Below, in pieces: positions 56,957 through 63,551 of a stretch of 64,000 nucleotides of DNA. Made by a program: the position numbers and the translations under genes. Every line of letters begins with the position of its first letter. Position 1 is the stretch's first letter. The notes under the pieces are model-generated. The model searched no databases. It was not told the origin of the DNA and worked only from the letters and a program-made list of their open reading frames with translations. The stretch covers positions 128,001-192,000 of the forward strand of contig CAVRUH010000007.1 of the NCBI GenBank assembly GCA_963724325.1, written 5' to 3'. Origin of the DNA: Waddliaceae bacterium. GTDB taxonomy: Bacteria > Chlamydiota > Chlamydiia > Chlamydiales > Waddliaceae.

Positions 56957-57382
56957 TTAATGATTGCATTTGGACACAGAAGGTTCTATTAGTAAGGACT
57001 GCACTATCTCACCCACATCAGCTAGCGGGCAGGAAAGACGGGTGATGTCAGGATGATGATAGAATGCATTTGTCTGAGGTCCAAGTTCAAAAAGTAAAGG
57101 GTCTTCGCTATGAAGAAAAACTTTTTTTCCCCTTGCGATTGCAAACCCAAGCTCCAGGTGAGTACCGCCGCCTCCAGGAAGGAGAACAACTACAAAATCG
57201 GCATCCGAAACGCCTTGTAGTTCAAGAGCAGCCACTTCTTGAAGGCGTTCTTTGCTAATAGACTTTACACTCCCATGCCAAGTCCAATCATACGAGAGTT
57301 CATGACCGCATATTTTTAAGGAATCTCTTACCACATGATGTGAGGTCGCTCTTGAAAGGGATGTTGCTATATAAAACTTCAT
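56957..57382 (-). CDS. Nucleoside 2-deoxyribosyltransferase-like protein
   Basis: MKFYIATS, YDWT, ADFVVVLLPGG.GTHLELGFAIA.GK. Confidence 0.8.
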   Translation of the reverse strand: MKFYIATSLSRATSHHVVRDSLKICGHELSYDWTWHGSVKSISKERLQEVAALELQGVSDADFVVVLLPGGGGTHLELGFAIARGKKVFLHSEDPLLFELGPQTNAFYHHPDITRLSCPLADVGEIVQSLLIEPSVSKCNH

Positions 57383-57763
57383 AAGATTTTTTGGGGTTTA
57401 TGATTAAAGAACAAAGTCTAACAGTCATTTTGGATTTTGTCGAGTTAAAAGTTAGCTTATTTTTGTTAAATAACAAAAAAAATTGATAGATTTTTTGATC
57501 TTTTTATAGTAAAATTATATGGAAACTAAGTGGGGAGAGGATTGCGATGAATAAAGTAAATATAAAAAATAAAAAGGTCAATCAATTGATTGTTAGTTTT
57601 TCGTCGTCTGTAAAATCAATAAGCTATCTTCAGTTGAAAGAAGCCGATGACCTCCGATCATGGGACCCGGCCAATTTTATGCTTGCATAAAATTCAAGAA
57701 ACGTGTACCATTCTATTAACTTTGCAGAATATTGCCAAAGTGAAACTCATTTAGGAGAATGAA

Positions 57764-57895
57764 ATGAATACAATACAATTTGATTATGGAGCGCGGTTAA
57801 TCCCTGTGCAATCCAATCGTTATCTCAATTCTTTGTCAGCGTCTGTTTCCTCCATTCATCATCTTTCCCATCATCACGAGCATCCAGCTCATTAA
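57764..57895 (+). CDS. His-rich leader peptide (43 aa), candidate attenuator
   Basis: AGGAG RBS; MNTIQFDYGARLIPVQSNRYLNSLSASVSSIHHLSHHHEHPAH, 7 His in the last 12 codons. Confidence 0.72.
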   Translation: MNTIQFDYGARLIPVQSNRYLNSLSASVSSIHHLSHHHEHPAH

Positions 57896-58051
57896 TAGTT
57901 CCCTGTAAATTTTTATTAAAATTCAGGATTAGATTGAGTCATTTAGAGGCTTCCATCTCATTCAGAATCAAAACATATTTTAGATAAATTTATTAACGAT
58001 TCACCTGTTCACTAGTTTATGTGGAAGGTGGAAATAATTTGAGGATTTTTT

Positions 58052-58711
58052 ATGAAACCAAAATCAATTGGCATTATTGGCGGAGCTGGCCCTTTGGCAG
58101 GAGCTTTGTTGCTTGAACGTATACTTATCCTTTCGGGAAGTGAATATGGGTGTTATAAAGATGCAGATTTTCCAGAAGTAATTCTTCTTAGTTTTCCTTT
58201 TTCGGAAATGTTGACTCCTGAAAGAGACGTCTTGCAAATTGCGAAGAGAGCTGAGTGAGTGTTTAAATCGATTACGTAAAAATGGCGCTGCTGTTCTAGC
58301 TATAGCTTGCAATACACTGCACGCATTTTTAGAGGAGAATGAAGATTTGTCAGATCTCATACACCTGCCGCGAGTGGTAGCAGAGGAGATTCCTGCATCA
58401 GAGGTACCATTGGTCCTTTGCACCTCAACATCTGTTCAATTTGGGGTACATAAACAGTTTTTCCCTTGCGTGTATCCAGATTCAAAGACTCAGTTGCAGG
58501 TGGATGGGATCATTGACCGAGTTCTAAAGGGAGAAATCAAATTGTCGATGAGTTGTTGACGATTCTTCGGGCTCAGGAGGCACGTACAGTTGTATTGGGA
58601 TGTACCGAATTATCCCTTTTTACGAAAAGTTTATCTGTAAGTGATCTGATAATCATAGATCCGTTAGAGGTTGCAGCAAAAAAAGTATTAGAAAAAAGTT
58701 TTTTAAAATAA
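58052..58711 (+). pseudogene. Asp/Glu racemase-family amino-acid racemase with two frameshifts (about 58240 and 58540)
   Basis: IGIIGGAGPLAG, IACNTLH and VVLGCTELS...DPLEVAA found in three successive frames. Confidence 0.82.
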
Positions 58712-58723
58712 TAGGAGTTAATT

Positions 58724-59737
58724 GTGTTTTCAATTGTAGAAAAATCAGAAATGTCAACTTTCCCTGCCACAATGCAGGAAGAATTCGTTTCTATTAAGCT
58801 CTTTAAGGAACCGTGTTCTCCAGATATGGTGGTTGAGGAGATAGCAAGCATTAAAGGTCCAGTGGATGTTTATTGCTGGTATGAAGGGGTCTCTGGTCTT
58901 CCGATAGCTGGCGCCAAATTTATGAAGCAGAATATTTTGGAGCCTCTTGCTAAACAAAAGGTAGATGTAAAATTATGTCTTTATTCACTTCGAGGGTGGG
59001 ACTTTAAAGAAGGCATTTCAAACATGCCGGTTTTAACGACTTTGGGAGAGGCGATTAATCGCATCAATACGAAGGTTATTGAGTGTTTTTACTCATCCTC
59101 ATTTTTTCGGTATTGTGCCGATGTGTCAGATAAGGTTGCTCTTTATGAATATTTAAATAAGGAGTTACCCAAAAAGGTGCGACTCATCAAACATTCAGAA
59201 GGTCGAGAGCCATGCGGCATATCGATAGGGAAATTTTTTGAGGAGAGAGTGTCATTATTTGATTGCATCAACGAGATGGATGTCTGTAAATCTTACTCAT
59301 TGATGCAGTACATCGAGGGTTATTACCTGATTCAAGAATCAATTAAGAGGGGATTAGAGCAGGGACGAAGGCAAATTGAAATTGCTTTTGTACTTCCCAA
59401 TGATGAAGGTGAATATTATTTAGAGCTTCCGGATGAGATTGAAAGAATGCTTAAATTGGATTTCGGTGCAAAACTTACAAATATCAAGGTCAACATTACT
59501 TTTAGATTTTTTAAGTACAAAAATAGTCTAAAAGCTAGGCCATATAACGACCAATGGGGACAAAAGGTAGAAGCCGAAGAAATCGGCGCCTTATCTACCA
59601 AAATGCCCTCAAAAATTAATTTAAAAGGAGAATTTAAAGATGAATGTTTCAATTTTTGTTTCTATGCTGTTTATCTTGCAGTTTATTTATTGGGCTGTGG
59701 GAAGACGGTCTTCAAAAAATTTGAGTGGCAAGGATGA
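58724..59737 (+). CDS. Unknown enzyme-like protein; native stop probably near 59624
   Basis: AGGAG RBS; motifs WYEGVSG, YSLRGW, YSLMQYIEG, FVLPNDE..YY, RPY; the called C-terminus overlaps the next gene by 98 nt. Confidence 0.65.
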   Translation: MFSIVEKSEMSTFPATMQEEFVSIKLFKEPCSPDMVVEEIASIKGPVDVYCWYEGVSGLPIAGAKFMKQNILEPLAKQKVDVKLCLYSLRGWDFKEGISNMPVLTTLGEAINRINTKVIECFYSSSFFRYCADVSDKVALYEYLNKELPKKVRLIKHSEGREPCGISIGKFFEERVSLFDCINEMDVCKSYSLMQYIEGYYLIQESIKRGLEQGRRQIEIAFVLPNDEGEYYLELPDEIERMLKLDFGAKLTNIKVNITFRFFKYKNSLKARPYNDQWGQKVEAEEIGALSTKMPSKINLKGEFKDECFNFCFYAVYLAVYLLGCGKTVFKKFEWQG

Positions 59738-61016
59738 TTATTTCTTAGCTGGAAAAACTGTAAGGCTTTTTCCTTTGATGATGACATTTCTAGCTACACA
59801 AGTAGGTGGGGGACTAGTTCTTGGAGCCGCTGAAGAGGCCTATATATTTGGATGGCCAGTGCTATTATATCCTCTGGGATCTGCTCTTGGGCTTATGTTG
59901 CTTGGGTGCGGCATTGGTCGTAGATTAGCAGGTTTTCAAGTTTCCACTGTTTCGCAAATCTTTGAAGTGGTCTACGGATCGCCATTTTTAAGAAAAATAA
60001 CATCGATTTTATCGGTGATCGCTTTGTTCATGGTGCTTGTGGCGCAAATCATAGCCTCAAACAAGTTTTTGATTAGCATGGGGTTCAGCAATGTTCCTCT
60101 TTTCATTGTGTTTTGGGCAATTGTGATTATCTATACTGCGCAGGGAGGACTGAAAGCAGTGATCTCCACTGACATGGTTCAGGCAGCTTTCTTTTCGTTT
60201 ATTTTTCTGCTTTGTTTTGGATTTGTCCTTTATACAAATACTTCAATCGCATCAGTGGGATTGCCGCAATTGGAGCAATTTTCAGAGGTTTCTTCAAAAT
60301 TTTGTGGATGGCTTTTAATGCCCCTTCTTGTTGTAGTGATAGAACAAGATTATGCGCAACGTTGCTTTGCAGGTAATTCTCCCAAAATTGTAACCAAGGC
60401 CTCCTTCCTAGCTGGTATTTTCACCATGATTGTTTGTATTGTACCCGTTTTCTTTGGTGCCCTCGCAAATAGTATGAATCTCGAAATCCCTGCGGGAAGC
60501 AGCGTATTAATGGAAGTGATTGCAATAACCACAAATCCGTGGATTGCGGCACTTGTCGGATGTGCAGTGTTGGCTGCAATTATTTCAACAGCTACTTCCC
60601 TTATCAACGCCATTAGCTCGAATTTATCGAGTGACTTTAAATTAGCCGTTCTTGAACGTTTCGATACGATACGTATAGTGCAATGGACCACCTGTACTAT
60701 TTCGATCGCAGCCATATTTTTCGCATTCTATTTTGATAATATCGTTGATATGTTGATTCAAAGTTATGAGCTTTCGGTTAGCTGTATGTTTGTTCCCGTT
60801 CTTATTGCTTTGTTTAAGAAAAGAGGAAATTTTCTGGCGGCATGTATTGCTATGATATTTGGTGCTTTAGCATTTGTTTACTTTCGGATATGCCCTATAG
60901 AGTTTCCAAGAGAAATTGCGAGTATCTTGTTATCGTTCATGGGATATTTTTTGGGTGAAATGATCGCTAGGTACAGTGCAAGTAAGATCAAGTCGGTTGA
61001 AAGAGCAGTTTTATGA
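59640..61016 (+). CDS. Sodium:solute symporter family transporter
   Basis: DDYFLAGK, ATQVGGG..LG, YT..GGLKAV..TD..Q, QDYAQR, LAAIISTA; many transmembrane segments. Confidence 0.92.
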   Translation: MNVSIFVSMLFILQFIYWAVGRRSSKNLSGKDDYFLAGKTVRLFPLMMTFLATQVGGGLVLGAAEEAYIFGWPVLLYPLGSALGLMLLGCGIGRRLAGFQVSTVSQIFEVVYGSPFLRKITSILSVIALFMVLVAQIIASNKFLISMGFSNVPLFIVFWAIVIIYTAQGGLKAVISTDMVQAAFFSFIFLLCFGFVLYTNTSIASVGLPQLEQFSEVSSKFCGWLLMPLLVVVIEQDYAQRCFAGNSPKIVTKASFLAGIFTMIVCIVPVFFGALANSMNLEIPAGSSVLMEVIAITTNPWIAALVGCAVLAAIISTATSLINAISSNLSSDFKLAVLERFDTIRIVQWTTCTISIAAIFFAFYFDNIVDMLIQSYELSVSCMFVPVLIALFKKRGNFLAACIAMIFGALAFVYFRICPIEFPREIASILLSFMGYFLGEMIARYSASKIKSVERAVL

Positions 61017-61666
61017 AAAGTAGAATTGCAACAATCGCGGAGTTGCAGCAAATTAGGTGCTGTGAAAATGGAGAGCTTCTTGTGAGTTTGACTGACGAAT
61101 GCCCTGATATCATTTGTGAGTATCGCAGAAAAGATTCTGACCAGAACAAAGTTTTGGTCAGAAAATCTGTTTGTAAAAGGCTGCAAAAGGTGCAAAGCAA
61201 GCTTTGTGCTTACGATTCTCAACTGAGACTTTTGGTTGTAGAGGGATACCGGAGCCCTGTTTATCAGGAGTCTTACTATTTGAAAGAACTTCTCACTCAA
61301 TATAAGGAAGAGCCTGACTTGGACTTTGAGGCCCTTTTGGAGAGGGTGCATCAATTAGTCGCCCTTCCAAGTGTTGCCGGGCACCCCACCGGTGGAGCTA
61401 TTGATTTATCAATTGTGCGTGGTGAAGATGAATTGGATATGGGAGGGAGAATTGCAGACTTCAGTATTCCAGCAATGCTTCCAACGCATTCACCATTTAT
61501 CACCCCGGAGCAAGCAAAATGGCGCTTTCAGCTTCATGATTTAATGGTTGATGAAGGTTTTGCGCCATTTTATGGAGAGTGGTGGCACTTTTCCTATGGA
61601 GATCGTGAATGGGCTGCATTTTATGGCATGCAAGAAGCATTTTACACTTCAATTTTATTGTGTTAA
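61013..61666 (+). CDS. M15 D-Ala-D-Ala dipeptidase family (VanX/DdpX-like)
   Basis: LLVVEGYRSP, AGHPTGGAIDL, EWWHFSYGD. Confidence 0.9.
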   Translation: MKSRIATIAELQQIRCCENGELLVSLTDECPDIICEYRRKDSDQNKVLVRKSVCKRLQKVQSKLCAYDSQLRLLVVEGYRSPVYQESYYLKELLTQYKEEPDLDFEALLERVHQLVALPSVAGHPTGGAIDLSIVRGEDELDMGGRIADFSIPAMLPTHSPFITPEQAKWRFQLHDLMVDEGFAPFYGEWWHFSYGDREWAAFYGMQEAFYTSILLC

Positions 61667-61697: not shown

Positions 61698-62483
61698 TTA
61701 CTTGGTTTTTACAGCTCCCATAATTTTTTCGATGAGTGGGGATGAAAGTGCCAAGTATGCTATTTTATTTCGGATATCTTTCGGCATTTTCTGTGTAGAA
61801 TGGTATCGTTCCGTGAAATGCTTCCAAGCGCAAAAAACACTGAGTAATGATTTATAATGAGGATTATGTGATAATTCGGAATTGGAATCGCTTGTACAAA
61901 TAAGGTTTATTGTAATAGTATCAATATTTGACTGATTCCTAAGATTTTTAATTACTTTGCATTTGCATAAATCGTGCAATAAGATTAAAGAAGCCATTAA
62001 AGATGTTTTGTACGTTGCATCCTCCTTGGACCACTCTATATGATCAGGTCGAGTATTTTTAAAAATGCCTAGATCATTACTCAAATAATCATCAGAAAGT
62101 TGCTCAAGATTGAAGGTTTCCGATCGCAACTGAGTATCATCTTTTAAAAGTTTTTCTAGTAATATTTTTTGAAAATCGGAAGAATTATTCATTGATGCAA
62201 AGGCAACCAGCAGTAAGGCAGTTTGGCCTTTTGAAGGATAACTATTATCACAGGCTGGTAGTTGTAAAAGTTTCACCATATTTGGAATATTCCGTGAGCG
62301 ATGATCGTCTTTTATTTCATTTGCAGAATCTATCATGGCTTTCCCCAATGCCTTAAAGTCTGTAAAAAAATAATTGGGGTTATTTGCGTGAAGATTACTT
62401 GCCGTTGGTGTATAGAAATAAAGGTTTGTTAAATAATAATTCTCGTCAAGTGGATCAAAATTACTCATAATAGCTGCGTGCAT
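61698..62483 (-). CDS. Hypothetical protein, tandem paralog A
   Basis: Aligns with 62688-63551 (FKAL.K..IDSANEIK..HRSRNIPN, KTSLMASLIL, FCAWK, KMPKDI..KI). Confidence 0.75.
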   Translation of the reverse strand: MHAAIMSNFDPLDENYYLTNLYFYTPTASNLHANNPNYFFTDFKALGKAMIDSANEIKDDHRSRNIPNMVKLLQLPACDNSYPSKGQTALLLVAFASMNNSSDFQKILLEKLLKDDTQLRSETFNLEQLSDDYLSNDLGIFKNTRPDHIEWSKEDATYKTSLMASLILLHDLCKCKVIKNLRNQSNIDTITINLICTSDSNSELSHNPHYKSLLSVFCAWKHFTERYHSTQKMPKDIRNKIAYLALSSPLIEKIMGAVKTK

Positions 62484-62687
62484 AAAAAACTCCTTGTTTG
62501 TGATTAAAATTATTTAATTCTTTTTCTGGATCATCGACTTAACTTTGATTTTTCAACAAAAAGCGCAGTAAATATCCAAATTTCCTATATTATAATAAAA
62601 TTTCGGGATTTGTCAATCCGCTTTGCCATTTGATATTTTGTGGTTTGCATTTATTTTCTTTAAGATATGCCCTATGCAAAGCAAGCT

Positions 62688-63551
62688 TTAATTTGCTTCA
62701 TGATTTTTGGTTTTTACAGCTCCCATAATTTTTTCGATGAGTAAGGGTGAATATGCCTGATATACCAAGCTTGTTATTTTCTTTAGGATATCTTTCGGCA
62801 TCTTCAGACTAGTGTATTGTACCATATCATACTTCCAAGCGCAAAATAATGTTAGTAATGATTTATTGAGTAAGGATATATCAAGAGGAATAGGTGATAA
62901 CTTGGAATCTGTACAAATATTGTTTATTGCAATACTATCAATATTTTTTCCATCATAAATAGTTTCAATTACTTTGCATTTTACTAAATCGTACATTAAG
63001 ATTAAAGAAGCCATTAAAGATGTCTTGAACATTGTATCATGTTGTTGTTTTTCTGAAGGGGTTCCCTTAAATTCGTGCAAGCCAAACTTTTTCTCGTACA
63101 TGTGTACAGGTGTGTTTTGATCAATTTTAAAATTTTTTAGCTCACTACTCAAATAAGTATATGAAAGTTCATCAACATCGAAGACTTCCGACTTTAAACT
63201 AGTATACGACATAATAAATCGATTTGTTAAAAGTTTTTCTATTATTTTTTTTTTAAATTCGGAGAAAGTATCCATTGATGCAAAGGCAACTAGCAGTAAG
63301 GCCTTTTGGGCTTTTGAAGGATAACTATTATCACTTAGTGGTTGTTGTAAATTTTTCACTATATTTGGAATATTTCGTGAGCGATGACCTGTTTTTATTT
63401 CATTTGCAGAATCTATCAAGGCTTTACTCAAGGCCTTAAAGTTTGTATAATAATAATCGGCGTCTTTGGCGTGAAGATCTAGGCCCCAATCGATTCTTAT
63501 TTTTTCACTGGCATCATAAAAGATAGGAAGACTATTATCAGGTACGTTCAT
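62688..63551 (-). CDS. Hypothetical protein, tandem paralog B
   Basis: As above; the upstream ~140 bp is also duplicated. Confidence 0.75.
   Translation of the reverse strand: MNVPDNSLPIFYDASEKIRIDWGLDLHAKDADYYYTNFKALSKALIDSANEIKTGHRSRNIPNIVKNLQQPLSDNSYPSKAQKALLLVAFASMDTFSEFKKKIIEKLLTNRFIMSYTSLKSEVFDVDELSYTYLSSELKNFKIDQNTPVHMYEKKFGLHEFKGTPSEKQQHDTMFKTSLMASLILMYDLVKCKVIETIYDGKNIDSIAINNICTDSKLSPIPLDISLLNKSLLTLFCAWKYDMVQYTSLKMPKDILKKITSLVYQAYSPLLIEKIMGAVKTKNHEAN

Follow-up and report, generated by a model that had tools for sequence, protein, structure and literature searches.

A conserved histidine-codon leader in Chlamydiota that probably governs a histidine-starvation operon encoding an undescribed protein of predicted class I synthetase-type fold

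In E. coli and Salmonella, the his operon is controlled by attenuation through the hisL leader, whose run of histidine codons gauges the level of charged tRNA-His. The Rho-dependent leaders tnaC and speFL sense a free ligand via the nascent peptide. Histidine leaders are known outside the Proteobacteria, where they precede hisS paralogues in bacilli, and the same survey credits Chlamydiota with almost no attenuators that have a function (PMC2965389). A chlamydial precedent for codon-run sensing is the WWW motif of C. trachomatis YtgCR, as outlined in PMC7755916. Here we describe a histidine-rich leader open reading frame (ORF) and the four genes behind it in a 64,000-nt stretch of a Waddliaceae bacterium (contig CAVRUH010000007.1 of assembly GCA_963724325.1, positions 128,001 to 192,000), referred to below as the window. 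The genes encode, in order, an Asp/Glu-family racemase, a protein of unknown function (UNK), a sodium:solute symporter and a peptidase. Together with the leader they probably form a histidine-starvation operon, in which stalled leader ribosomes would let transcription reach genes predicted to restore the supply of histidine.

A conserved histidine leader

The leader lies on the forward strand at 57764..57895, with an AGGAG ribosome-binding site (RBS) 6 nt upstream (57753..57757). The initial annotation had described an ORF of 43 codons with seven histidines among the last 12, followed by a spacer of 156 nt (57896..58051) before the next gene, and both descriptions hold. Among the 3477 small RBS-led ORFs of the genome, it alone carries at least five histidines in its last 12 codons, the runner-up having four. 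In combining a short RBS-led frame with a run of cognate codons, it would appear to resemble the leaders of hisL-type attenuators. A two-codon ATG-AAA-TGA frame (57759-57767) overlaps its start codon.

Loci encoding UNK were gathered by whole-genome searches and from contigs of GTDB, of metagenomes and of viruses; merging at 95 % identity gave 76 distinct loci. Many of these are short contigs and, since the loci are kin, p-values are overstated. The presence of the leader at homologous loci, on which the first reading depended, was borne out: it heads 35 of the 76 loci and 32 of the 41 racemase loci that have enough upstream DNA, a count from which one small ORF lying antisense to a gene (L123) was excluded. 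The leaders end in the register H-H-H-x-H-x-A-H/Q-stop; counted backwards from the stop codon, histidine stands at -7 in 34, at -6 in 33 and at -4 in 33 of the 35, and alanine at -2 in 27. At most loci the leader is 26-43 aa long with a variable N-terminal part, and the spacers of the homologues, of 54-340 nt, are U-rich. At one locus (L015:6663-7115, genome G330), a tandem pair of His leaders stands ahead of the racemase. Ahead of the leaderless loci, no convincing case of a leader for another amino acid was found among 31 loci.

The idea that the four genes form one fixed pathway did not survive the comparison, since the core consists only of leader, racemase and UNK. A racemase lies near 34 of the 35 leaders, a symporter near 19 and a peptidase near 10; where at least 2.2 kb of downstream DNA is available (28 loci), 15 have the symporter and 7 the peptidase, including 6 that have both. 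The leader survives changes of gene order, which runs leader-UNK-racemase in a metagenome-assembled genome (MAG) of the Coxiellaceae (L029) and leader-SSS-racemase-UNK at two loci (L113, L115); at another, UNK alone follows the leader (L073).

Allowing at most one mismatch, a search found a 24-nt leader motif in 41 of 401 Chlamydiota genomes and the reversed control in 4. The motif precedes racemase-UNK pairs (14), symporters without racemase or UNK (15), racemases without UNK (4), a hydantoinase-type operon (5) and amino-acid ABC binding proteins (2), with one spurious case. The motif thus appears to keep its position ahead of predicted His-supply genes, a function assigned by family and by the histidine depletion described below. 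The hydantoinase-type operon (L203:654-5770, also L190, L193, L202 and L178) comprises genes for a 428-aa unknown protein, an NCS1 permease, an S-Me-THD-like (thiohydantoin-desulfurase-like) protein and a hydantoinase/oxoprolinase-like protein, and may salvage histidine from thio- or methyl-histidines, judging by its gene content. The 428-aa protein falls in no Pfam or NCBIfam family and is split into two ORFs in four genomes. Two more His-poor unknown ORFs stand right after the leader, before a symporter or an ABC binding protein (L184:563-1171 and L164:474-1343).

The leader RNA and the route of termination

Both hairpins named in the initial annotation can form locally (CCTG/CAGG, -5.7 kcal/mol; TTCACCT/AGGTGGAA, -13.6 kcal/mol), while the leader region as a whole folds no better than shuffled sequences (z 0.48). 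Directly upstream of the racemase RBS, folding places a hairpin at 58000..58032, whose position is loosely kept among homologues and whose sequence is not; of the 35 leaders, 13 have a z below -2 at this position. The best-conserved RNA element had been missed. It is a 4-bp hairpin, GRGC-N5-GCYC, set within the last His codons themselves (57878..57890). In 29 of the 35 leaders (L029, L082, L100, L104, L105 and L115, which do not have the motif, being left out), 115 of 116 cells are paired, and two pairs are altered on both sides. This level of pairing was reached by 2 of 500 shuffles, and controls slid along the alignment gave 33-44 %, figures that flatter the hairpin because the structure was derived from these same sequences. 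Of the 27 alanine codons at -2, 26 are GCT, compared with 30 % in genome usage, a preference that we attribute to the hairpin. Constraint on the leader acts on the RNA.

The sequence comparison suggests a His leader of known type in a new form, with a hairpin within the codons. As in hisL, a short ORF with a histidine run stands upstream of His-supply genes and is read as a gauge of charged tRNA-His. It differs from hisL in its length, mostly 26-43 aa, in the hairpin inside the His codons, in the long U-rich spacer and in the absence of a GC-rich terminator/antiterminator pair. It also differs in what it controls, namely importers and salvage genes, and in its occurrence in Chlamydiota.

How termination would be brought about is suggested by composition. 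The 3' half of the window leader is C-rich and G-poor, and the last 60 nt of the leaders contain 31 % C, 9 % G and 41 % U; pyrimidines fill 254 of 329 wobble positions, with 180 expected, and an equally skewed composition is met in 576 of 158250 genome windows. The untranslated spacer, U-rich and G-poor, is a candidate Rho termination zone, and rho is present in the genome. A C-rich, G-poor and weakly structured leader end, an untranslated spacer and a rho gene would together make up a Rho-type signature. Neither a terminator-like site nor a GC-rich intrinsic terminator/antiterminator pair was found in leader or spacer, and a search of Rfam returned no family match. Rho-type attenuation is the best fit by analogy, with about an even chance of being the actual route. 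The likeness to tnaC and speFL would then lie in the position of the leader ribosome deciding termination in a pyrimidine-rich stretch; sensing of a free ligand is not proposed here.

The conserved hairpin itself, of only 4-6 bp and about -5 to -7 kcal/mol, is a candidate polymerase pause site or weak terminator. It is followed by 2-6 U within 8 nt, and this succession of hairpin and U's counts against a purely Rho-based route, since it might form a weak intrinsic terminator that coupled translation would block. Occlusion of the RBS, considered as well, finds weak support: in the 29 leaders, the real spacers leave the RBS unpaired at a value of 0.19, the same as shuffled spacers (0.19), and placing a ribosome on the final His codon raises the value to just 0.35.

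Histidine depletion and the direction of the switch

A low content of the cognate amino acid marks proteins of starvation recovery (PMC4209129). In the window, UNK has one histidine in 289 residues (binomial 0.009) and the symporter none in 458 (binomial 0.0006). Across 33 leader loci the UNK domain contains 0.27 % histidine, against a genome background of 2.32 %. Elsewhere its content is 1.95 % in 10 loci linked to histidyl-tRNA synthetase (HisRS), 2.02 % in 15 leaderless loci of the GNAT type and 1.56 % in 13 other loci, several of which are cut upstream. The same contrast separates neighbouring branches of the family, with 0 and 0 histidines in L104/L105 against 8 and 6 in L095/L097, and 0 and 0 in L100/L115, where L114 has 6; in the main UNK clade, five members without a leader have 3-11. 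These branch comparisons come from a quick tree in which five short rows were omitted and many forks are open. The symporters are likewise depleted (0.13 % and 0.34 %, compared with 1.62 % in membrane-like proteins). Behind the leader, symporters that stand alone and the products of the hydantoinase-type operon show the same scarcity (0.07-0.74 %), and the ABC importers there are also His-poor. The racemase is partly depleted (1.36 %) and the peptidase is not (2.9 %).

Because leader-controlled proteins are depleted of histidine, the operon is likely to be on during histidine starvation, and judging by these sequences a starvation-on switch is highly probable. Leader control responsive to histidine, as first proposed, is now well supported by conservation, by constraint at the RNA level and by this depletion, while the suggestion made alongside it, that the genes make a His-derived product, is weakened by the starvation-type composition. 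The chlamydial precedent stands on the other side, since the Trp-codon run of C. trachomatis works in the opposite direction and stalling there causes termination (PMC7755916). That motif lies within a gene and switches it off, whereas the present leader is a separate ORF that likely switches its genes on.

A quite different explanation would make the His-rich ORF a metal-binding peptide, or the precursor of a ribosomally synthesised and post-translationally modified peptide, and no regulatory leader at all. Its length, 26-43 aa in most cases, is indeed large for an attenuator peptide, and the His register is fixed. The RNA-level constraint, with its bias to GCT at Ala(-2) and its paired double changes in the hairpin, speaks against such a peptide, as do the variable N-terminal part, the scarcity of histidine in the downstream proteins and the lack of recurring metal genes. 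The metal-binding alternative, already raised in the initial annotation, has thereby been weakened to the point of being very improbable.

In the starvation operon that we favour, a shortage of charged tRNA-His would hold a ribosome on the His run, where it would cover the C-rich stretch and the hairpin and keep Rho off. With ample histidine, the ribosome would finish the leader and depart, and Rho would terminate transcription within the spacer. Of the proteins then made, the symporter would bring in histidine or a derivative, the peptidase would release histidine from dipeptides, and the racemase would convert D-His to L-His. D-His and D-His peptides, as first proposed, are candidate substrates. 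The symporter by itself is likely to import histidine or a His derivative, since lone symporters, poor in histidine, sit behind the leader. HisD was not found in the genome, which is 84.6 % complete, so that a role of UNK in de novo histidine synthesis was rejected.

A predicted class I synthetase-type fold in UNK

UNK (58724..59624) has no usable match in Pfam, NCBIfam, a PDB sequence search or the ESM Atlas. Its family comprises at least 316 representatives at 50 % identity and occurs in 36 of 401 Chlamydiota genomes, in 1 of 86 genomes of the order of the Coxiellaceae MAG and on giant-virus contigs. A model of the window protein (pLDDT 89) matches TyrRS in Foldseek (E 7e-4), and VIA-align gives Z 8.8 for TyrRS and Z 8.1 for cyclodipeptide synthase (CDPS); for a viral homologue (pLDDT 94), the order is reversed, with Z 8.3 for CDPS and 7.9 for TyrRS. 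For both models the structural matches listed are class I synthetases or relatives of them, and a library of viral folds returned a viral TyrRS (E 4.5e-3) among weak matches. An RCDPS structure was not among the top matches listed, which does not of itself exclude such a likeness. The models thus predict a class I Rossmann catalytic fold of the TyrRS/CDPS type.

Thirteen residues are near-invariant in 206 UNK sequences (W52, G55, W92, S158, Y191, Q195, E198, E228, Y231, Y232, R272, P273 and Y274). Six invariant positions, Y191, Q195, E198, D/N227, E228 and R272, occur in the same order as motifs of the TyrRS and TrpRS encoded in the same genome, the shared motifs including Y-x-x-x-Q-x-x-E and D-E-x-K-Y-Y. 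From the roles of these residues in TyrRS and TrpRS, they may represent a retained amino-acid pocket and ribose contacts. The equivalences rest on motif order because hhalign profile-profile alignment of UNK with TyrRS/TrpRS gave none, one TrpRS set being empty; this failure, and structural scores that are middling (Z 7.5-8.8, root-mean-square deviation about 4.2 Å), weigh against the assignment of the fold.

Several hallmarks of the synthetases (class Ic) are absent. HIGH is not found, and the positions that follow the first strand conserve neither His nor a polar residue; RPY replaces KMSKS; and there is no anticodon domain, since family members end at about 265-325 aa and the structural matches cover the catalytic domain alone. 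Unlike TyrRS and TrpRS, UNK is linked to histidine, and TyrRS, TrpRS and HisRS are each encoded separately in the genome. A role as a replacement HisRS was rejected, given the intact HisRS of the genome and the missing ATP motifs of UNK. On the strength of the models, UNK would be a stand-alone class I fold without ATP motifs and in this respect like the CDPSs (AlbC, Nbra-, Rgry- and Fdum-CDPS).

The resemblance raises the prospect that UNK is a CDPS-like synthase making a His-containing (cyclo)dipeptide from His-tRNA, whose product the racemase, methyltransferase and GNAT partners found beside UNK would tailor, with the leader on when histidine is plentiful. CDPS structures tie with TyrRS as top matches, the hisS genes beside UNK are extra copies in all four genomes checked, and one subfamily of 15 loci combines UNK with GNAT, methyltransferase and MFS genes. 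The nocardioazine pathway (PMC10156859) joins a CDPS, a racemase (NozR) and a methyltransferase, though from separate loci. The catalytic serine of CDPSs (AlbC Ser37), as defined in PMC12945691, finds no conserved counterpart in UNK, whose near-invariant serine, S158, lies elsewhere in a mapping by motif order; Gln stands where AlbC has Glu182, and none of 81 UNK members matches Pfam CDPS. Moreover, histidine depletion confined to the leader-controlled members points to expression under starvation, and the same leader controls lone importers. A synthase of this kind is improbable.

Links of UNK to HisRS and its possible function

Outside the leader loci, UNK is repeatedly associated with HisRS. 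It is fused ahead of HisRS in L095, L097 and, in part, P0165, and behind it in P0245; in a 1.47-Mb viral genome it adjoins the HisRS gene. Further fusions join it to RimJ/L-type GNATs (three proteins) and to a VanX-type peptidase (L115). In a giant-virus MAG it lies between a hutH-grade HAL and a PepD-type M20 peptidase, and HisD-like, HisC-like and HisRS-HAL fusion genes are neighbours elsewhere. The HisRS-, HAL- and GNAT-linked loci have no leader (0 of 10 for those linked to HisRS). UNK in giant-virus DNA is found at L123:4386-6795 and L103:4296-8364, and L101 looks viral. The HisRS-HAL fusions (L028:4013-7093 and L088:2031-5102) are about 1025 aa long; their HisRS motifs look intact, and they carry the HAL motif Ala-Ser-Gly. 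One locus (L061:1049-9650) clusters two HisRS-like genes, a degenerate HisD-like gene, an aromatic permease, UNK, a racemase and HAL. In the leaderless loci L094, L096, L099 and L106-L111, UNK stands with a RimJ/L-type GNAT, to which it is sometimes fused, a methyltransferase and a convergent MFS gene, with normal histidine content.

HisRS is able to mischarge D-His, and to our knowledge it has no editing domain. The fold of UNK, its HisRS fusions and its tight pairing with a racemase able to make D-His lead us to propose, tentatively and as a possibility short of probable, that UNK hydrolyses histidyl-type aminoacyl esters or adenylates without need of ATP and thereby proofreads tRNA-His. In the operon it would clear tRNA-His of D-His or of a His analogue and hand the freed amino acid back to the racemase. 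Of the functions considered for UNK, proofreading ranks first, though narrowly. Four points weigh on it. We know of no editing enzyme built on a class I catalytic fold. DTD is also present in 27 of the 36 UNK genomes, which led us to reject UNK as a substitute for DTD and which counts against a simple D-His deacylase. HAL, which destroys histidine, neighbours UNK at 6 of the 76 loci, and the 15 GNAT/methyltransferase/MFS loci have no link to histidine.

The fusion of UNK to a VanX-type peptidase, the PepD-type M20 peptidase adjoining it in the giant-virus contig and the locus where it stands alone behind the leader fit another function under the same starvation switch. UNK might be a salvage hydrolase that frees histidine from an imported conjugate, upstream of peptidase and racemase; a His-containing cyclodipeptide, N-acyl-His and a methyl- or thio-histidine derivative are candidates. 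Consistent with this, in 5 genomes the leader also heads genes for an NCS1 permease and for thiohydantoin-desulfurase-like and hydantoinase-like proteins, and an Asp/Glu racemase homologue is able to act on cyclodipeptides (PMC10156859). Such a hydrolase leaves unexplained the HisRS fusions at both ends, the viral HisRS neighbour and the fusion to a RimJ/L-type GNAT, and UNK has no serine at the CDPS position. We consider it rather unlikely.

The variety of neighbours has also suggested inducible resistance to a His analogue or HisRS inhibitor. The drug would lower His-tRNA and trip the leader, with UNK, GNAT, methyltransferase, HAL, HisD-like proteins, efflux and a spare HisRS as interchangeable defences. 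One activity would then suit all three contexts of UNK, and HisD-like, HAL, extra HisRS and MFS genes do flank it. Against this, the HisRS-, HAL- and GNAT-linked loci are leaderless, lone importers behind the leader are better explained by plain hunger, and we know of no such compound in this niche. Resistance seems a poor prospect.

Should the proofreading that we rank first be right, UNK would be the first editing domain to be built on a class I (TyrRS-like) catalytic fold, and also the first enzyme to proofread tRNA-His specifically. It would act on its own or joined to the class II HisRS at one end or the other, would be common to giant viruses and bacteria associated with amoebae, and in the chlamydiae would be induced, together with a racemase, by a new form of His leader with its hairpin in the codons. 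This composite claim is a doubtful one at present.

The remaining genes of the operon and the state of the assembly

Profile searches of the window ORFs place all four genes downstream of the leader where the initial annotation had put them. The racemase (58052..58711) lies in three frames, with breaks near 58245 and 58530-58555; in relatives it is intact, at about 221 aa. Its catalytic Cys motifs CNT and GCTE, invariant in 17 and 31 homologues, are present in the window pieces, as in the aspartate racemase/CuyB family, from which it differs in having P-F-S-E-M-L in place of a Pro-Asp-Arg segment. The symporter (59640..61016, 458 aa) matches Pfam SSF with 82.8 bits, the cut-off being 22.8 (E 3e-23). 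The M15 peptidase, an accessory member (61013..61666, 217 aa), is VanX/DdpX-like (E 1.5e-14), with zinc ligands and catalytic Glu in place (zinc-binding H-x-x-G-x-A-x-D and E-W-W-H motifs); it falls below the VanX and DdpX equivalog cut-offs (40 vs 320 and 34 vs 176 bits), and all window scores for the racemase and peptidase families lie below the curated cut-offs.

As assembled, the UNK frame extends to 59737 and overlaps the symporter ORF by about 100 nt. In a contig from run X1 one base fewer is present at 59591, and the ORF would then end near 59624; the 337-aa length of the assembled ORF is probably the product of an assembly indel. A contig from run X2 has an additional T at 58045, and rho and one other housekeeping gene are likewise split. 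Since contigs differ by single bases and such genes are split, indel errors in the assembly are likely, and they are the likely cause of the racemase frameshifts, although the comparison contigs spanned neither racemase break. The case is not one-sided: only 2 of 49 tested genes are split, the racemase being one of them, and it may be a genuine pseudogene here.

Around the operon, the minus strand carries two tandem paralogous ORFs of 261 and 287 aa with near-identical flanks (61698-63551), whose one weak match (E 0.015) is to a phosphoribosyltransferase-like anti-phage model, and a divergent nucleoside 2-deoxyribosyltransferase-like gene (56957-57382) that is not kept beside other leader loci. 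A comparison with plasmids gave no match. At L064 (G000:C1), the TrpRS of the genome looks archaeal or eukaryote-like, with a PF00579 score far below that of its relatives, and an aromatic permease adjoins it.

Implications

Among the papers covered, literature searches found nothing on this leader, operon or UNK family, though a genome-wide attenuator table could include such a leader. The UNK enzyme family appears to be undescribed and may turn out to be of an altogether new kind. For their amino acids, environmental chlamydiae rely on the host, and how they sense a shortage is little understood; the leader would provide a defined histidine sensor in about a tenth of the sampled genomes. It would also offer a substrate assignment for orphan genes, among them a family of His importers, an Asp/Glu-family enzyme that is a candidate His racemase, and the hydantoinase-type operon. 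UNK, for its part, would form a new branch among the proteins that descend from class I synthetases, one tied to HisRS.

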